From Escherichia phage vB_EcoM_CRJP21: a stretch of 64,000 nt of DNA. The number at the start of each line of letters is the position of its first letter. Positions within the stretch are counted from its first letter, which is position 1. A model generated the notes under the pieces. It had not been told where the DNA came from. It made no database searches and saw only the letters and a list, made by a program, of their open reading frames with translations. The stretch lies in the sequence record OQ708376.1; one strand, written 5' to 3'. Made by a program: the position numbers and the translations under genes. This document shows, in pieces, positions 3,325 through 50,780 of the stretch.

Positions 3325-4463
3325 CCCTTTTGCAAATATATGAAGATTTAATGCACTTATGTAATACAAACGATGCATTCTTTTATGTGGATCATAAAAG
3401 TCCTGCTGGTGGCACGTATCGTGTATTCAGTTATCGTCTAGCATCATACACTGATTTCATGCAACCAAATGCGTTGGAAACCCGTGGCTCTATGTGGGAA
3501 ATTGATGAAGAAGGTGACATGATACGTTGTGCAGCACGTACAATGAAAAAGTTCTTCAATGCTTACGAGAATCCTGCTACAATGTTCCCTGCTAACACCA
3601 CATGCGATGACATTGCGGTAGTGATGCCTAAGTTGGATGGCTCGATCATCAGTACTTATCGTGATAATGATGGTGAGATTCGTTGTAAATCACATACTGC
3701 ATTGTATTCTGACCATGCGATTAACAGTACTCGACTTATTAACGAGAACCAGAATTTGTATCAGTACATCGACGAAGCGGAACGTTTAGGTTACACAGTT
3801 AATATGGAGTATACAAGCCCAGAGTACCGAATTGTATTACCATATCAGGTAGAACAACTGTTTGTACTGAACGTTCGTCATCGTGTGAGTGGTGAGTTGC
3901 TATGTGGTAAAGCACTACGTGATAAGTTTCCATGTCTTGCACAGTACAGTACTAATATGACTGGAAAAGATATTCATCACACTTTTCCGGTACGAAATAC
4001 CTTCCGTGAAAGCGTGGAGGAAGTTCATAAAATGCTTGATATTGAGGGTTTTGTGTGCATCCTAAATAATGGGACAATGTGTAAAATAAAGACTGACTGG
4101 TACAGTTCATTACATCTTACAAAAGATAGTATTATTATTGATTCTCATTTATATGAAGCAGTATTAAATGGTTCAAGTGATGATTTAAAACAATTGTTCA
4201 GTACTGATGAATATGCTATGCAAAAGATATTAAGAATGGAACAATTGGTATTTTCGTGCTATAATGCATTACAAGATGAAGTAGAAAGCTTCGTCAAGGA
4301 ACACAAGCACTTGGAGCGAAAGGAATTCGCAATGAAGGTTCAGGAGTGTTTAACTAATGAACTGAATCGTCAGGGCTTGGCCTTTGCAATGTATAACAAT
4401 AAGAAAGTTGATTACAAAGAGACTCTTATAAAATACATGAAAATTGTACTAAAGGATTTTTAG
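3321..4463 (+). CDS. rnlA: RNA ligase 1 (T4 Rnl1-like)
   Basis: 380 aa; N-terminal region (FYVDHKSPAGGTYRVFSYRLASYTDF) matches T4 Rnl1 pattern; ligase motif I lysine in MPKLDGS. Confidence 0.85.
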   Translation: MTLLQIYEDLMHLCNTNDAFFYVDHKSPAGGTYRVFSYRLASYTDFMQPNALETRGSMWEIDEEGDMIRCAARTMKKFFNAYENPATMFPANTTCDDIAVVMPKLDGSIISTYRDNDGEIRCKSHTALYSDHAINSTRLINENQNLYQYIDEAERLGYTVNMEYTSPEYRIVLPYQVEQLFVLNVRHRVSGELLCGKALRDKFPCLAQYSTNMTGKDIHHTFPVRNTFRESVEEVHKMLDIEGFVCILNNGTMCKIKTDWYSSLHLTKDSIIIDSHLYEAVLNGSSDDLKQLFSTDEYAMQKILRMEQLVFSCYNALQDEVESFVKEHKHLERKEFAMKVQECLTNELNRQGLAFAMYNNKKVDYKETLIKYMKIVLKDF

Positions 4464-9923: not shown

Positions 9924-10667
9924 ATGAAACATTTCTTAGAAGTAACCGTACCTGATGATAAAGATTTATACATTGTAGGTGATTTGCATGGTAATGGTAA
10001 ACTATGGGATGCTACAGTGAAAGAATTTGGTATTACACACAATGATTATGTTTTCAGTGTAGGTGATATTATCGACCGTGGAGAACAAAATTCAAAGCTC
10101 CTTTTTGAATTTTTGTTCGGAGAAAATCGTTACATGATTGCGGGTAATCATGAGATGATGTGCGTTGATTCGGAAACACTTCGAGATTGGTATCATTGTT
10201 GGATAAGTAATGGTGGTGATAAATTCCTTGATGAAGTTGGAGGAACAGGTATTCAATTCTTTCGTCAGTACTTGAAAGATCTCCCTATGATTATCCAAAT
10301 CAATCACCGAGGATTGAAGATTGGGTTAGTTCATGCTGGAGTTCCGTTGGAATATACAACATGGGAACGATTTGTTAATGGGACAAAATCACTTAGTGCT
10401 GATATAATTGATAAGTGCTTGTGGGATAGAAAAACATTCGATTATTGTAGAACTAATAATACATATTATGCACCTAAGTTAGATGGAGTGCATTGTGTCT
10501 TTAGTGGACATACAGCAGTTACAGACCCACTCATTTACGGTAATCGCATTTGGATTGATAGTCAGTTCTTGACGGGTGACTTAACTCTCGCTACTCCACA
10601 AAGTGGTGGAATGAGATACTTACGTAAAGAAAAAGATGAGTACTCATTCAATCGTTTCAAAAGGTAA
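9924..10667 (+). CDS. Ser/Thr protein phosphatase-family metallophosphatase
   Basis: GDLHGN, GDIIDRGEQ, GNHEMM motifs (PPP/ApaH-like); ATG 9924. Confidence 0.7.
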   Translation: MKHFLEVTVPDDKDLYIVGDLHGNGKLWDATVKEFGITHNDYVFSVGDIIDRGEQNSKLLFEFLFGENRYMIAGNHEMMCVDSETLRDWYHCWISNGGDKFLDEVGGTGIQFFRQYLKDLPMIIQINHRGLKIGLVHAGVPLEYTTWERFVNGTKSLSADIIDKCLWDRKTFDYCRTNNTYYAPKLDGVHCVFSGHTAVTDPLIYGNRIWIDSQFLTGDLTLATPQSGGMRYLRKEKDEYSFNRFKR

Positions 10668-25070: not shown

Positions 25071-25099
25071 GGGACATTATGTCCCATACATGATATAAT
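25071..25099 (+). promoter_or_regulatory. promoter GGGACA-N14-TGATATAAT with dyad symmetry over -35
   Basis: -35 lies in palindrome TGGGACAT-T-ATGTCCCA (25070-25086). Confidence 0.5.
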
Positions 25100-47171: not shown

Positions 47172-47476
47172 AAAAATTATTAGTTCCGTTTATTTCTTTT
47201 TTAATTATAAGTGGATGTGCAGAACAAGTAAAACTACAATCCCCTACACCAATTAAACAAGAAATTCTGTTAGAAAGATGTGATGATGATACACCTCTAC
47301 CACAAAAAATTATGATTGACAAAAATGGTTTTAAAGGTTATGATGGTGCAGAAATTCTTAAAGTACTTACTCGTTGGGATGCAGTATACAACGAATGTGC
47401 TTTAAAACATGATGCATTAATTAAAACTATTCGTGATTTACAAGGTAAAGATATTAAAATCAATATCAAGGAATAA
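47168..47476 (+). CDS. putative o-spanin (lipoprotein)
   Basis: signal + lipobox ISGC; additional Cys residues; ATGA overlap with i-spanin. Confidence 0.55.
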   Translation: MKKLLVPFISFLIISGCAEQVKLQSPTPIKQEILLERCDDDTPLPQKIMIDKNGFKGYDGAEILKVLTRWDAVYNECALKHDALIKTIRDLQGKDIKINIKE

Positions 47477-47477
47477 A

Positions 47478-48089
47478 ATGAACAAATATCATGTTTACTA
47501 TACGACCAAATTATCACTTCTTGACGAATTAAATCAACGAAGTACTAAGATGAAACGCTACACTTTAAATGGTATTACTTTTCGATATTTCCCACAAAAA
47601 GTTCTTACATTTATTAAGAATCCAAAATGCGTGGCATGTGGGATTGAAGCTACTGAAGTACGCATTGAACGTTCATTATGTTCTGATCCAGTATATGGTA
47701 AACCACATTTAAATGTATATGCTGTATGTGGTCTTTATGAAGTTTTAATGACAGTTGACCATAATCATCTGGCATCTAAGGGTGGACCTGATTTAGAGTC
47801 AAACTTTAATACTATGTGCTCCAGATGTAATCAACTACGTTCGAATAAAACTGAAACAGTTGATGAGTTTCTTGAGAAAGTTAAAGGTCGTAATCTTCTC
47901 CAAGAACATATGAATAATTTCTTTAATGTACAAAAAAAGAAAAATAACATTGACAAGTCGAAACTACTAGAAGAACGTAGGTTACGTCAAGAATTATGGG
48001 AAACTGATCATCTATGGCATGTTCGAGAGTTTGGTCGTCATATGAAAGCATTGAAAAAAGAACAGAAGAAATTGAATAAACATGATTGA
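47478..48089 (+). CDS. HNH endonuclease
   Basis: CVACG ... VDHNHLASKGG ... CSRCN (HNH with zinc-binding Cys pairs). Confidence 0.7.
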   Translation: MNKYHVYYTTKLSLLDELNQRSTKMKRYTLNGITFRYFPQKVLTFIKNPKCVACGIEATEVRIERSLCSDPVYGKPHLNVYAVCGLYEVLMTVDHNHLASKGGPDLESNFNTMCSRCNQLRSNKTETVDEFLEKVKGRNLLQEHMNNFFNVQKKKNNIDKSKLLEERRLRQELWETDHLWHVREFGRHMKALKKEQKKLNKHD

Positions 48090-48101
48090 TATGATATTAT
48101 A

Positions 48102-48131
48102 GGGACTTGAGTATTCAAGTCCTTTTTTTTT
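48102..48131 (+). terminator. intrinsic terminator
   Basis: GGGACTTGA-gtat-TCAAGTCC then T9. Confidence 0.65.
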
Positions 48132-48142
48132 GGAGAAAATAT

Positions 48143-48415
48143 ATGAAAACAAAATTATTTCCACAACAAATAATGATTGAACTGTGCGAACATCAGTCTG
48201 GTGAAGTTGTTACAATCAGTGGTGATACGTATTCCATCATTTTAAATGAACAACAATTTGATCATACAAACCATACGAATGAACTGTATAATCTTATGTT
48301 TATGGACGATAAGAGTGAAAAATACTATCATTGTACATATGAACGATGTATAGATACAACACCATTTTGTAATGAAATGGTTGGTGTTAAATGTTATGAA
48401 TGTGAAGTGTTATGA
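48143..48415 (+). CDS. hypothetical Cys-rich protein, tandem paralog 1 of 2
   Basis: MKTKLFPQQIMIELCEH ... KYYHCTYER. Confidence 0.5.
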   Translation: MKTKLFPQQIMIELCEHQSGEVVTISGDTYSIILNEQQFDHTNHTNELYNLMFMDDKSEKYYHCTYERCIDTTPFCNEMVGVKCYECEVL

Positions 48416-48435: not shown

Positions 48436-48792
48436 ATGAAAACAAAAATCTTTCTACCACAAACCATGATGGAACTGTGTGAACATGATGCAGGGGATGT
48501 TGTCACTATTAGTGGTTCCTGGAATGAGAGTACTGAAGACTTTATGCCAGATGAGGTATATTCTGTTGTTTTAAATGAACAGTACAATACAAGCCGTTGG
48601 AATGCACAGTACAATCTAGTTTTTCTTGACAATAACAATGAAAAGTACTATCATTGTACGTATGAACGAGGTCTGACAGAACGTAACTACACAACTCCTT
48701 TCTGTGATGAAATGGATGGTGTAAAGTGCTATGAAGTTTATGTTCGTCAGGTTCCAGTTGTTACTTACAAAACCGAGTGGGATTATCTGTAA
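48436..48792 (+). CDS. hypothetical Cys-rich protein, tandem paralog 2 of 2
   Basis: MKTKIFLPQTMMELCEH ... KYYHCTYER. Confidence 0.5.
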   Translation: MKTKIFLPQTMMELCEHDAGDVVTISGSWNESTEDFMPDEVYSVVLNEQYNTSRWNAQYNLVFLDNNNEKYYHCTYERGLTERNYTTPFCDEMDGVKCYEVYVRQVPVVTYKTEWDYL

Positions 48793-49190
48793 TGCTTAAA
48801 GATTTAGATTTTTCAAATTTAGAGATCATCAGTGCAGTGAAGAATATTACTGATATGGATGATGAAAAAGGTGTAATGGTAACTATCACTTTCGTAAAGG
48901 AAGAGGATAGCTATAAGCATCTTACTGGAATTGAAGAACTAATTCATAAAACCAATCTTGAGAATGATGGTAAACTCATCAAGCTTCAGGCTTCATATAC
49001 GCAAAAAACGTCAAATTTTATAGACCTAAATAATGTAGTCAAGGTGGTATACAATCATCCTGATCACACATATAGGAACACGACAAGAAATGAAAATGTT
49101 GCTAACGATTCGAATATTATCGAAGATGTTGAATTCATAAACACAATTTTTGATCGTTGTTCTAAGGATTTAAAAAAAGTATACATGTAA
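48792..49190 (+). CDS. hypothetical protein
   Basis: ATG 48792 overlapping previous stop. Confidence 0.45.
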   Translation: MLKDLDFSNLEIISAVKNITDMDDEKGVMVTITFVKEEDSYKHLTGIEELIHKTNLENDGKLIKLQASYTQKTSNFIDLNNVVKVVYNHPDHTYRNTTRNENVANDSNIIEDVEFINTIFDRCSKDLKKVYM

Positions 49191-49191
49191 T

Positions 49192-49219
49192 GGGACATTA
49201 TATGTTCCAATGATATAAT
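49192..49219 (+). promoter_or_regulatory. promoter GGGACA-N13-TGATATAAT
   Basis: same architecture as 25071 promoter; drives the ORF-poor island. Confidence 0.5.
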
Positions 49220-49496
49220 GTATATAGAAAATGACAACGGACATTGAAAAATGGACACTGAGAACCTACTTCTCTTGAAAATGTAAAGGATAGATGAGCT
49301 TTACCGTTGTAGCGAACAGCAGAAGAAACCTGTTAGAGTACTGGCATTTAAACAAACACGATGTAAGACCACGAATCACGGCGACACGGCTGTATAAAGA
49401 ACTCCGATAAGCATACAGAGAGTTCCTAGATAGATGTATAAGGTTCGCACCTTACCAGATTTGCTAAGGGAGTTTAAGAATAGCGGACGCAATTTT

Positions 49497-49525
49497 ACAA
49501 GAAAGTTGCGTCCAAAATTTGAGAA
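49497..49525 (+). repeat. direct repeat copy 1 (29 bp)
   Basis: ACAAGAAAGTTGCGTCCAAAATTTGAGAA; copy 2 at 49649-49677 differs at 2 positions. Confidence 0.7.
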
Positions 49526-49648
49526 CAGGTACTACTTTGATCGAATAGAGTTAGTACTGAGTGCTGTTGATGAAAAGACCAGCGACCGTTGCATATGACT
49601 GCGATAGAGAGAAACCGAGCAACCCGCTTTCGCTCTCTAAATTTTGGT

Positions 49649-49677
49649 ACAAGAAAGATCCGTCCAAAATTTGAGAA
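49649..49677 (+). repeat. direct repeat copy 2 (29 bp)
   Basis: ACAAGAAAGATCCGTCCAAAATTTGAGAA. Confidence 0.7.
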
Positions 49678-49713
49678 ATTCGCAATTCGATAATATCCGA
49701 TGCCATCATCGTC

Positions 49714-49740
49714 AAGAGAGACTTAATTGTCTCTTTTTTA
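49714..49740 (+). terminator. intrinsic terminator
   Basis: GAGAGAC-ttaatt-GTCTCT then TTTTTT. Confidence 0.6.
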
Positions 49741-49878
49741 TTATCTTCATTCCCCTGCGGGGGATGTAATAGTCCTCAACAAATCCCGTCAAGTTTTTAA
49801 AGTACATTATCATTTTCAGAAGGAACTAGTTTACGAAGTAAACGCAGTGACTTCTTGAGTTACGAGAGAACGAAGTGA

Positions 49879-50307
49879 ATGAGTAACACAACGAAAATAT
49901 CCGATAAATCTGAATTAACACAAATGTTATTCAAAGAATATTTTGAGTTCCAGATAAAAGACGAACATCAATTACCACAGCAATATTTGAAAAGAATTAA
50001 AGATCCGTCAGTAATTACTAAAGAAACTAATTTTTATAATAGTATTTTAGATTTCGTTAAATCAGTTCATACAACAAGACCTATTGTAGTTTTGTTTTTT
50101 GATAAATCTATTCCTTTAGTAGTTCCTGAAAATGTATTTTTTATCTCAGAAACTGATTTAAATAATCAAAGTACTGTAAGTAGATTAAGAAATTGCTTAC
50201 TTGTAGTATGTGATTCTTCTTTGTATATTAATAGAATACTATGGGATAGAAGTAAACGCAATACAGTTTCGGAAATGAATCCTGAAATTACCTTTATTAT
50301 TAACTAA
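49879..50307 (+). CDS. hypothetical protein
   Basis: 142-aa ORF, ATG 49879. Confidence 0.5.
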   Translation: MSNTTKISDKSELTQMLFKEYFEFQIKDEHQLPQQYLKRIKDPSVITKETNFYNSILDFVKSVHTTRPIVVLFFDKSIPLVVPENVFFISETDLNNQSTVSRLRNCLLVVCDSSLYINRILWDRSKRNTVSEMNPEITFIIN

Positions 50308-50339
50308 ATAATAAGAGAATAACTCTAAGGAGAGATATT

Positions 50340-50780
50340 ATGGAAGATATTAATGATTTACGACACGTAATGGACTTTATCGGAAGTACTGAAGAAGATA
50401 ATTCATATGATGAAGTACTATTAACTTTTATTGAAAATAGTTTGTTTTTGAGTTCTGCTGCACATAACTGGCACTTACAATGTCATTTTTATACAAAGCA
50501 TTTACAATTAGATGAACTATATAAAGAATTACCAGAATATGTAGACGCATTTGTTGAAGGTATCATGAATAATCGTGGTGCTTTACAAGTTGGGACTGGT
50601 AATAGTTATCGTTTTACACCAATTGAAGATTGTGTACCAATTCTTGAAGAATATGTTGAGCAATGCAGAGCAATTCATGATATGCTTGAAGAATCGGGTG
50701 ATTACGGCAGTGTAAACACATTAGAAGATATTATGAGTTTTGTTGAAGGCGTACTTTACAAACTTAAAGTTTTACAATAA
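50340..50780 (+). CDS. Dps/ferritin-like protein
   Basis: LTFIENSLFLSSAAHNWHLQCHFYTKHLQLDELYKEL ... RGALQVGT aligns with E. coli Dps helix A/B region. Confidence 0.65.
   Translation: MEDINDLRHVMDFIGSTEEDNSYDEVLLTFIENSLFLSSAAHNWHLQCHFYTKHLQLDELYKELPEYVDAFVEGIMNNRGALQVGTGNSYRFTPIEDCVPILEEYVEQCRAIHDMLEESGDYGSVNTLEDIMSFVEGVLYKLKVLQ

Follow-up and report, generated by a model that had tools for sequence, protein, structure and literature searches.

The 64,000-nucleotide (nt) stretch of Escherichia phage vB_EcoM_CRJP21 DNA analyzed here (sequence record OQ708376.1; hereafter, the window) contains, at positions 49192-49793 of the plus strand, what comparative analysis strongly supports as a stand-alone gene for a large, highly structured noncoding RNA (ncRNA), type A of a paralogous family. 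We put the probability that this is the best explanation of the locus as a whole at about 0.8. An extended -10 promoter would drive the synthesis of a ~515-nt transcript composed of a 5' domain (helices P1-P5 and a 3-base-pair (bp) pseudoknot, PK2) and a 3' domain (P7, P8, the P9/P10/P11 junction and the long-range pseudoknot PK1); transcription would end at an intrinsic terminator, and a G-run hairpin with a tail then follow. The predicted RNA, with 13 helices including PK1 plus the additional PK2, is therefore large, multi-pseudoknotted and encoded by phages and prophages. We rate it as a new RNA class, uncatalogued in Rfam 15, in the annotations of matching records and in the open-access literature.

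Large and intricate bacterial and phage RNAs, such as OLE, ROOL, GOLLD and raiA, are rare and remain open puzzles, mostly in organisms that are hard to manipulate. The family described here appears to be of comparable size and complexity, its covariation support is unusually clean, and its carriers are culturable coliphages (PBECO4, 121Q, phAPEC6, Sharanji and others) and prophages of Enterobacterales, which makes it testable in E. coli. An earlier note on this DNA had suggested one or more small RNAs at the locus. The RNA part of that suggestion is borne out, but several small RNAs are not, as positions 49266-49691 are tied together by long-range helices and two pseudoknots into one ~515-nt multi-domain RNA.

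Covariation and the predicted fold

The conclusion is carried by the pattern of substitutions among homologs. Forty-five non-redundant family members with less than 97% mutual identity were aligned with MAFFT from sequence only, and in such alignments invariant blocks alternate with helices that change on both strands. When RNAalifold was applied to 21 sequences, it predicted 71 pairs, 42 of them compensatory. The curated structure contains 13 helices (PK1 among them) and 71 pairs, not counting PK2. Standard pairs occupy 96.8% of the cells of these 71 pairs, compared to 35.5-43.7% when the 3' partners are slid by 1-3 columns; both-side changes are found in 56 of the 71 pairs and in 635 cells (46-93 for slid partners); and the covariation score is 0.536 (0.05-0.07 for slid partners). 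Compensatory substitutions thus go beyond the controls, as they should in a conserved structured RNA. A comparative alignment had been proposed in the earlier note as a way to tell whether substitutions preserve structure or codons, and the answer is that they preserve base pairs and not codons. Folding of the RNA, another check proposed there, gave a minimum free energy (MFE) z-score of -3.84.

Among the paired cells, G-U or U-G combinations number 180 and A-C or C-A combinations 23, and this excess indicates that the plus strand is the functional RNA strand. The same asymmetry bears on the idea that the locus works at the level of DNA, as iterons or operators, as a CRISPR-like mini-array, or as the remains of a decayed mobile element or gene. 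Such an idea could appeal to two 29-30-nt direct repeats, which are of CRISPR-like length, to several palindromes and to an open reading frame (ORF) for an HNH protein 1.1 kb upstream. However, tolerance of G-U and not of A-C is a signature of RNA rather than of duplex DNA, the HNH gene is absent beside other copies, and a sequence in decay could not be conserved across genera with compensatory changes: related phages have a conserved structure with compensatory changes instead of the degraded pseudogene remnant that the earlier note had considered. We also rejected a CRISPR array or mini-array specifically, as there are only two repeats, separated by a spacer of ~122 nt and lying inside covarying helices, and there are no cas genes and no cas-like domains in the nine neighboring ORFs. 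The chance that a DNA-level element explains the locus is negligible.

The long-range pseudoknot PK1, which spans ~140 nt, surfaced in an unbiased all-against-all scan for covarying columns. It is paired in 99.7% of cells and changes on both sides at 7/7 pairs, at four of them in 19-23 sequences. The pairing strands are AUCGAAU/AUUCGAU in type A members, AUUGUAU/AUACAAU in type B, and UUCAUGU/ACAUGAA or UCAUAU/AUAUGA in type C, and a divergent metagenomic subfamily has CUCAUAU/AUAUGAG and UUUACGU/ACGUAAA. The predicted features of the locus, all on the plus strand, are as follows.

49192-49219 (+), promoter, GGGACA-N13-TGATATAAT with an extended -10 element; predicted start near A49226, activity and timing presumed
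49226-49740 (+), core of the structured ncRNA, a ~515-nt transcript that would extend from the predicted start to the U-run of the terminator
49266-49453 (+), 5' domain: P1-P5, P3a and PK2 (helices 1-6 of the curated set)
49266-49276/49286-49293 (+), P1, by covariation
49298-49302/49309-49313 (+), P2, by covariation
49316-49320/49389-49393 (+), P3, by covariation
49330-49333/49378-49381 (+), P3a, around a variable insert and inside P3, by covariation
49399-49404/49420-49425 (+), P4, by covariation
49440-49442/49451-49453 (+), P5, by covariation
49384-49386 x 49435-49437 (+), mini-pseudoknot PK2, 3 bp, two covarying pairs
49485-49525 (+), module with repeat copy 1: hairpin of GGACGCAAUUUU (49485-49496) and AAAGUUGCGUCC (49502-49513) with loop ACAAG, and tail AAAAUUUGAGAA
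49528-49558 (+), P7 hairpin, whose loop holds the 5' strand of PK1, AUCGAAU (49540-49546)
49562-49599 (+), P8 hairpin (49562-49565/49581-49584, helix 9) and near-invariant joiner CGACCGUUGCAUAUGAC
49600-49691 (+), 3' three-way junction P9/P10/P11 (helices 8, 10, 11 and 12, including PK1)
49600-49604/49680-49684 (+), P9, by covariation
49607-49611/49627-49631 (+), P10, by covariation, with invariant loop AAACMGAGCAACCCG
49634-49637/49673-49676 (+), P11, by covariation; repeat copy 2 (49648-49677) is located at its tip, AAAUUUUGG/CCAAAAUUU
49540-49546 x 49685-49691 (+), long-range pseudoknot PK1, 7 bp, AUCGAAU of the P7 loop with AUUCGAU; the 3' strand abuts P9
49714-49739 (+), intrinsic terminator: 9-bp stem, 6-nt loop, U6
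49746-49793 (+), conserved 3' module: hairpin UUCAUUCCCC-UGC-GGGGGAUGUAA (49746-49769) and tail CCUCAACAAAUCCCGUCAAG (49774-49793)
49829-49843 (+), lineage-specific hairpin GUUUAC-GAA-GUAAAC in the spacer before the ORF at 49879

The six helices of the 5' domain are 92.7-100% paired, with both-side changes in 22 of their 30 pairs. Two of the pairs of PK2 covary with zero exceptions, one being U-A in 42 members and C-G in 3, and the other G-C in 37 and A-U in 8. In the 3' domain, P7 (helix 7) has both-side changes at all 10 pairs, and the invariant columns that mark the P8 and joiner part include G359-U365. Between the 3' strand of PK1 and the terminator there is a short stretch that ends with CAUCGUCAAG.

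The two near-identical 29-bp direct repeats pointed out in the earlier note are present; as measured here, they are 30 nt long (49496-49525 and 49648-49677), 93% identical and 152 nt apart from start to start, and they match each other with a BLAST E value of 4.7e-7 against the whole window. Judged from the alignment, this repeat is a duplicated hairpin-plus-tail module, for which the RNA has two positions, one or both of them occupied in a given family member. Copy 1, which is preceded by the invariant joiner GCUAAGGGAG, forms a 12-bp hairpin (49485-49513) seen in both the MFE and the centroid folds, and the P11 tip with copy 2 is a 9-bp pairing read straight from the sequence. The module is variable: it is absent from the type A copies of Mimasvirus (GAP32, CBB and XbC2) and present in type B, type C and prophage copies.

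The repeat also accounts for the features that made the locus look as if it encoded micro-proteins. According to this explanation, three ORFs of 38, 54 and 32-34 amino acids (aa), two of them ATGA-coupled and sharing the peptide TRK(L/I)RPKFE, would be the product of the locus. The ORFs do exist in the window, the ATGA overlap (49595-49598) and the shared peptide are both real, and some GenBank records annotate tiny coding sequences (CDSs) here. However, the plus-strand ORFs of 38, 54 and 34/32 aa are intact in 0/44, 0/44 and 0/44 homologs, respectively, and a 54-aa minus-strand ORF that is annotated in 121Q and A4 is intact in 1/44. Stops and frameshifts interrupt the micro-ORFs already in Turkey5 (~85% identical) and A4 (~79%), and the ORFs occupy three different frames and cut across the helices. 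On this comparison, the overlap and the peptide are by-products of an RNA-level repeat and no peptide is under selection, and the micro-protein explanation is refuted, with hardly any probability left to it. The region is ORF-poor, as had been noted: the longest ORFs inside the island are 54 aa, and a 64-aa minus-strand ORF (49064-49258) overlaps just its first 68 nt. Tiny "hypothetical protein" CDSs have been deposited on either strand within the RNA gene of several phages, at 3846-4001 of locus L001 (121Q gp516), 1314-1463 of L006 (A4_511), 1703-1855 of L004 (Yen9-04 g347/g348), 971-1475 of L008 and 1336-1580 of L009. Being unconserved among homologs, these CDSs are very likely annotation artifacts. 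Dozens of deposited jumbo-phage genomes place spurious CDSs on the element, and their annotation is corrected by this finding.

About 90 of the ~500 positions are invariant across the 45 diverged members, and many of these lie in unpaired joiners and loops. Such a pattern might be expected of a ribozyme, i.e., a large catalytic RNA that processes itself or acts on another RNA, with the joiners and pseudoknots making up the active site, and the two pseudoknots, the three-way junction and the size and complexity of the RNA are within the range of known large ribozymes. Yet high conservation fits a binding scaffold equally well, six diverse members have no match, even a weak one, to any Rfam 15 ribozyme, there is no context of a split host gene or exons, and no substrate is evident in the sequence. 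We therefore consider catalysis unlikely. A group I or group II intron was rejected as well, since there is no Rfam match and the flanking ORFs are complete, separate genes.

Promoter, terminator and the conserved 3' module

The promoter described in the earlier note is present as placed. It consists of a -35-like GGGACA (49192-49197), a 16-nt spacer and TATAAT with an upstream TG, i.e., TGATATAAT (49211-49219), and receives a score of 10/12 in a promoter scan. The degenerate motif GGGAYA-N12-15-TGNTATAAT occurs 5 times in the window, always on the plus strand, compared to 0.02 occurrences expected, so the promoter is no chance match. The plus-strand sites of the form GGGACA-N13/14-TGATATAAT are located at 352-379, 10380-10408, 25071-25099, 49192-49219 and 59658-59685. 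This recurrent motif probably defines a class of phage promoters whose -35 element is non-canonical, and which serves the RNA gene and, presumably, protein operons. In the family, TGNTAYAAT is found 20-96 nt upstream of the P1 loop in 39/45 members. The promoter appears to be of the host sigma-70 extended -10 type; this implies that the host RNA polymerase would be able to make the RNA early in lytic infection and also in lysogens of prophage carriers.

A good terminator had been placed at 49714-49740, and a terminator scan finds there a 9-bp stem (49714-49737) with a T-run behind it; over the 1.2-kb region, the scan gave 2 terminator-like sites, compared to 0.5 in shuffled sequences. By a crude test of stretch length and T-run, the terminator is present in 28/45 members, type C and many prophage copies being without it, and its stem (helix 13) covaries in the 31 members that have it. 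The gene is thus equipped with the predicted signals, a promoter and an intrinsic terminator of its own, that are expected of an independent ncRNA gene. The GC content over 49200-49800 is 0.38-0.42, compared to 0.24-0.34 in the flanks, in agreement with the GC-richer island seen in the earlier note.

That note had the island end at the terminator. The terminator holds, but conservation does not stop there: the segment 49746-49793 belongs to the same family. This 3' module is found in 45/45 members, and in the 17 members that lack the terminator it directly follows the first CGUCAR, which is why we assign it to the RNA. The CCCC-TGC-GGGG hairpin recognized previously (49752-49762) is present as part of a longer hairpin, 49746-49769. 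The 5' arm of the latter drifts from C to U opposite an invariant G-run, exchanging G-C for G-U pairs, and this drift points to pairing at the RNA level. A covarying partner for the invariant 3' tail and the G-run was sought, and only isolated, phylogenetically confounded column pairs were found.

The GTTTAC-gaa-GTAAAC palindrome (49829-49843), also reported previously, is present in type A copies of Asteriusvirus only. It is identical in Turkey5 and replaced by GTTATC-GTA-GATAAC in A4, where both arms are changed and complementarity is kept; the evidence is weak, as only three lineages are compared.

The absence of the terminator from type C and many prophage copies is relevant to the possibility that the RNA is a cis-acting leader, a long structured 5' untranslated region (a riboswitch, an attenuator or a processing site) for downstream genes, which would be the ORF 49879-50307 in this phage. 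Type C runs straight into a same-strand downstream gene, and in the window the 3' module ends ~85 nt before the ATG at 49879; conserved RNA behind a strong terminator is reminiscent of an attenuator. The downstream genes, however, differ across paralogs and genera, encoding an ADP-ribosylglycohydrolase, a Dps-like protein or a methyltransferase operon; type B faces convergent genes and ends at a bidirectional terminator; prophage copies precede a CI gene that is divergently or oppositely oriented; and known cis-regulators are much smaller and simpler than this RNA. A riboswitch or other cis-leader, for which a consistent class of same-strand downstream genes would be expected, was rejected on these grounds, and we regard it as quite improbable.

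Distribution of the family and possible modes of action

The window is 95-96% identical to PBECO4-like jumbo coliphages (PBECO4/121Q-like) of the genus Asteriusvirus. The 688-nt island matches 71 phage records, all of Rak2-like jumbo phages, whose hosts are Escherichia, Salmonella, Klebsiella, Erwinia, Yersinia, Cronobacter, Pectobacterium, Serratia and 'Xanthomonas', and its identity drops to 66-74% in other genera. In all records inspected, the match lies in a ~0.7-kb gene-free gap or beneath tiny unconserved 'hypothetical' CDSs. The RNA is 79% identical to that of A4 and 85% to that of Turkey5, equal to or above the 61-87% of the neighboring CDSs. The statement that the RNA is more conserved than its flanks is only partly true, since in the comparison with 121Q the downstream genes (98-99%) are as similar as the RNA (98.7%), and divergence is confined to the upstream genes (65-83%).

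Three or four paralogs are present in each jumbo-phage genome inspected, Serratia phage BF having four, and they are recognized as paralogs by their differing genomic neighbors: type B is located between the endonuclease VII and baseplate hub genes, type A usually upstream of the ADP-ribosylglycohydrolase region, and type C upstream of a methyltransferase operon. In 121Q, the copies are all on the plus strand, C at 192,793, A at 247,439 and B at 326,670; C is therefore ~55 kb upstream and B ~79 kb downstream of A, out of the range of a window such as ours. By both BLASTN and the family profile, the window has a single copy, of type A. A profile from which the window and its two nearest relatives had been excluded matches 49237-49743 (+) with E = 7.7e-91 and nothing else in the window, and RaK2 holds a divergent member (E = 8e-34).

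For wider recovery, a degenerate core pattern of 21-22 nt was used, and membership was judged by profile hidden Markov model searches. The pattern was found in 36 IMG/VR stretches, in 13 genome stretches, 9 of which (Enterobacterales contigs) are true, full-length members, and in 83 metagenome stretches; 62 of the 80 that were returned as loci are true members. Bacterial members come from Citrobacter, Serratia, Enterobacter, Silvania, Buttiauxella and 2 of 5,426 complete E. coli genomes, and PGAP annotates none of them. In the bacterial contigs with neighbors examined, the RNA adjoins a serine or tyrosine integrase gene, and most also have a nearby gene for a CI-type repressor, with the RNA in between. 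Apart from a 165-aa ORF considered below, the neighbors are integrases, CI repressors, ParB-like proteins or unannotated genes.

The number and spacing of the copies could also be accounted for if the RNA were an origin primer transcript of the R-loop type, comparable to ColE1 RNA II or T4 oriF/oriG, and the paralogs were multiple origins. ColE1 RNA II is ~550 nt long and requires its fold for priming. Three copies on one strand of a 350-kb genome, 55-80 kb apart, a strong promoter, a C-run and a G-run (a G-rich element) near the 3' end of a structured ~0.5-kb transcript, and AT-rich DNA downstream would be in line with this role. Against it, prophage copies are located between the integrase and the repressor and not in replication modules, an efficient intrinsic terminator precedes the G-run in 28/45 members, two pseudoknots and ~90 invariant positions exceed what an R-loop needs, and there are no iterons and no inflection of cumulative GC skew at the locus. 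A primer role is thus very improbable.

Comparison with known RNAs leaves the element without a catalogued class. The Rfam check, likewise proposed in the earlier note, showed no match at the gathering threshold among 4227 covariance models of Rfam 15 in the whole window; the same search of six loci with other members returned solely host signal recognition particle (SRP) RNA, which served as a positive control; and at E values of up to 5-10, the window and six diverse members gave only scattered snoRNA and miRNA noise, inconsistent between members. ARAGORN found 0 transfer RNA (tRNA) or tmRNA genes in the window, as expected from the lack of a visible tRNA pattern in the earlier note. No description of the element was found in the open-access full-text literature, including a jumbo-phage review and the CBB paper.

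The closest parallels are ROOL and GOLLD, ornate RNAs encoded by phages and prophages, frequently beside tRNA islands (PMC12286853). Their covarying loop pairings, at first interpreted as tertiary contacts, were later recognized as bridges between the molecules of RNA-only nanocages, and GOLLD combines a conserved 3' region with a variable 5' region (PMC12286853). The present family resembles both in being phage- or prophage-borne, several hundred nucleotides long, multi-pseudoknotted and rich in helices, with covarying long-range loop pairings, and in being likely composed of stand-alone transcripts that act through their three-dimensional (3D) fold; like GOLLD, it keeps its 3' domain in a divergent subfamily with a different 5' domain. 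It differs in that it does not match the Rfam models of ROOL and GOLLD, is hosted by Enterobacterales instead of mostly Firmicutes and environmental lineages, is not beside tRNA genes in the window, its annotated neighbors elsewhere being protein genes, and is present as three or four diverged paralogs per genome. With OLE and raiA the family has in common that they are large, highly conserved multi-helix ncRNAs from comparative genomics, with many invariant unpaired nucleotides, but those are chromosomal in Firmicutes and Actinobacteria, with characteristic gene neighborhoods, while the family is phage-borne and has no Rfam match. HEARO and omega-RNA are also large structured RNAs, and an HNH-domain ORF is found 1.1 kb upstream of ours; this candidate was rejected, as the ORF encodes a 218-aa HNH protein only and not IscB, the other copies lack such a neighbor, and Rfam gave no match.

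If the RNA is made as proposed, it most likely acts in trans, because downstream genes differ and type B copies face convergent genes; the genes downstream of paralogs and of prophage copies are unrelated. It would work through its 3D fold and not through base pairing with mRNA or coding. We tentatively propose, at somewhat less than even odds, that the RNA, as an RNA-only assembly or as part of an RNA-protein scaffold or decoy, engages some component shared by Enterobacterales hosts, by analogy with what was proposed for ROOL and GOLLD, and that the mutually non-complementary PK1 sequences of the three or four paralogs would keep each pairing private. The 6S, CsrB/CsrC and Y RNAs sequester proteins as decoys. 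The likeness of the family to them would be limited to the proposed mode, an abundant, stable and structured RNA binding a conserved cellular component in trans, and it has neither a 6S-like open-promoter mimic nor a conserved array of GGA hairpins, nor any Rfam matches. The retention of several diverged copies across at least five jumbo-phage genera argues for an important step in infection.

A more specific version of this scheme, which we consider rather unlikely, is that the new ornate RNA class of E. coli jumbo phages and enterobacterial prophages forms RNA-only homo-oligomers with the L7 x J9 pairing (PK1) as an intermolecular bridge, in which case the paralogs could build orthogonal assemblies, and the prophage site by the immunity region may point to a role in conflicts between phage and host or between phages (anti-defense, exclusion or takeover of a host machine).

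Several points weigh against the interpretation of the locus as a trans-acting ncRNA gene. None of 500 shuffles (0/500) reaches any of the observed covariation measures, but the sequences share descent and shuffle controls thus overstate significance, which the slid-partner control does not. Several helices and joiners, such as GCUAAGGGAG with CGACCGUUGC, are invariant and for that reason beyond the reach of covariation; the model contains neither the RNAalifold helix formed by these two segments nor a pairing of GAUGA with UCGUC/UCAUC, since their columns are all invariant or uncompensated. In this phage, the 3' module would be reached by terminator read-through, and the dependence on read-through is a difficulty. 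No protein gene is consistently adjacent to the family copies inspected, and a 165-aa ORF found downstream of the RNA in two prophage contigs had no tblastn match in 50,697 phage records. Our search of the literature found no RNA-seq study of Asteriusvirus, Mimasvirus or Eneladusvirus. The jumbo phage PA5oct, which is distantly related to the 121Q/RaK2 group and the one relative with RNA-seq, has transcribed ORF-free loci that are comparable in kind, ncRNA001-004, which were defined by RNA-seq, are 0.24-0.62 kb long and include two that are highly expressed throughout infection (PMC7318152). One of these four, ncRNA002, was compared to the family profile with nhmmer --max and gave nothing at E <= 10. 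Finally, the function, partner, stoichiometry and timing of the RNA are all inferred.

Neighboring genes and variation among copies

Upstream of the RNA gene in the window, the free-standing HNH endonuclease ORF (218 aa, 47433-48089, +; Pfam HNH, E = 1.3e-5) is located at a distance of 1.1 kb. The annotations of 121Q and A4 call it an HNH endonuclease, and it is absent beside the RNA copies of other genera. It is followed by two plus-strand ORFs, 48107-48415 (102 aa) and 48436-48792 (118 aa), which are tandem paralogs (53% identical, E = 6e-35) and match no Pfam family; in 121Q, a single gene (gp514) seems to take the place of this pair. The next ORF, 48777-49190 (+), encodes a DUF7325 protein, called a 'structural protein' in 121Q. 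Downstream, 50340-50780 (+) encodes a DUF5856 ferritin/Dps-like protein, annotated as a starvation-inducible DNA-binding protein or DpsA in relatives. Similarity to 121Q jumps at the 5' end of the RNA gene: identity is 65% and 83% for the CDSs upstream (48436-49190) and 98-99% for the RNA, its 3' module and the two CDSs that follow (49226-50780). This jump suggests a recombination boundary at or near the promoter.

In bacterial contigs, the RNA is just downstream of a gene for a large serine recombinase or a tyrosine integrase, mostly in the same orientation (L060 1845-5730, L059 2461-6572, L065 61-4193, L057 896-4504 and L129 958-5687), and in Serratia fonticola two ParB-like genes are found between the recombinase gene and the RNA. 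The copy of E. coli LR-29-1 (L070 1791-1887, 6001-6583) is part of an island beside ffs, the gene for SRP RNA, that also contains genes for an IS3 transposase, an integrase fragment, and DUF4326, DUF488 and dual-OB-domain proteins.

The divergent subfamily is represented by metagenome contigs (L098 9287-9444, L107 1050-1238, L128 692-849, L132 7426-7607 and L140 65-222). Its members retain the 3' domain, the G-run hairpin with its tail, and a PK1 formed by still other complementary sequences, and their 5' domain is unalignable with that of the main family. The copy in L098 adjoins a T4-type baseplate gene and the one in L107 a gene for an MFS transporter.

Beyond the 3' tail (window positions 49798-49900), copies from other genera (L002-L005, L008 and L010) share AUGAAUUGAG, GUACRAACGAAGUGAAGUAC and AACGAAAAUUCUUWGACAWUCGAAGAAU. 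Type B copies end at their bidirectional terminator past these shared downstream motifs, and MAFFT weakly aligns part of the downstream stretch with the start of the ORF at 49879.

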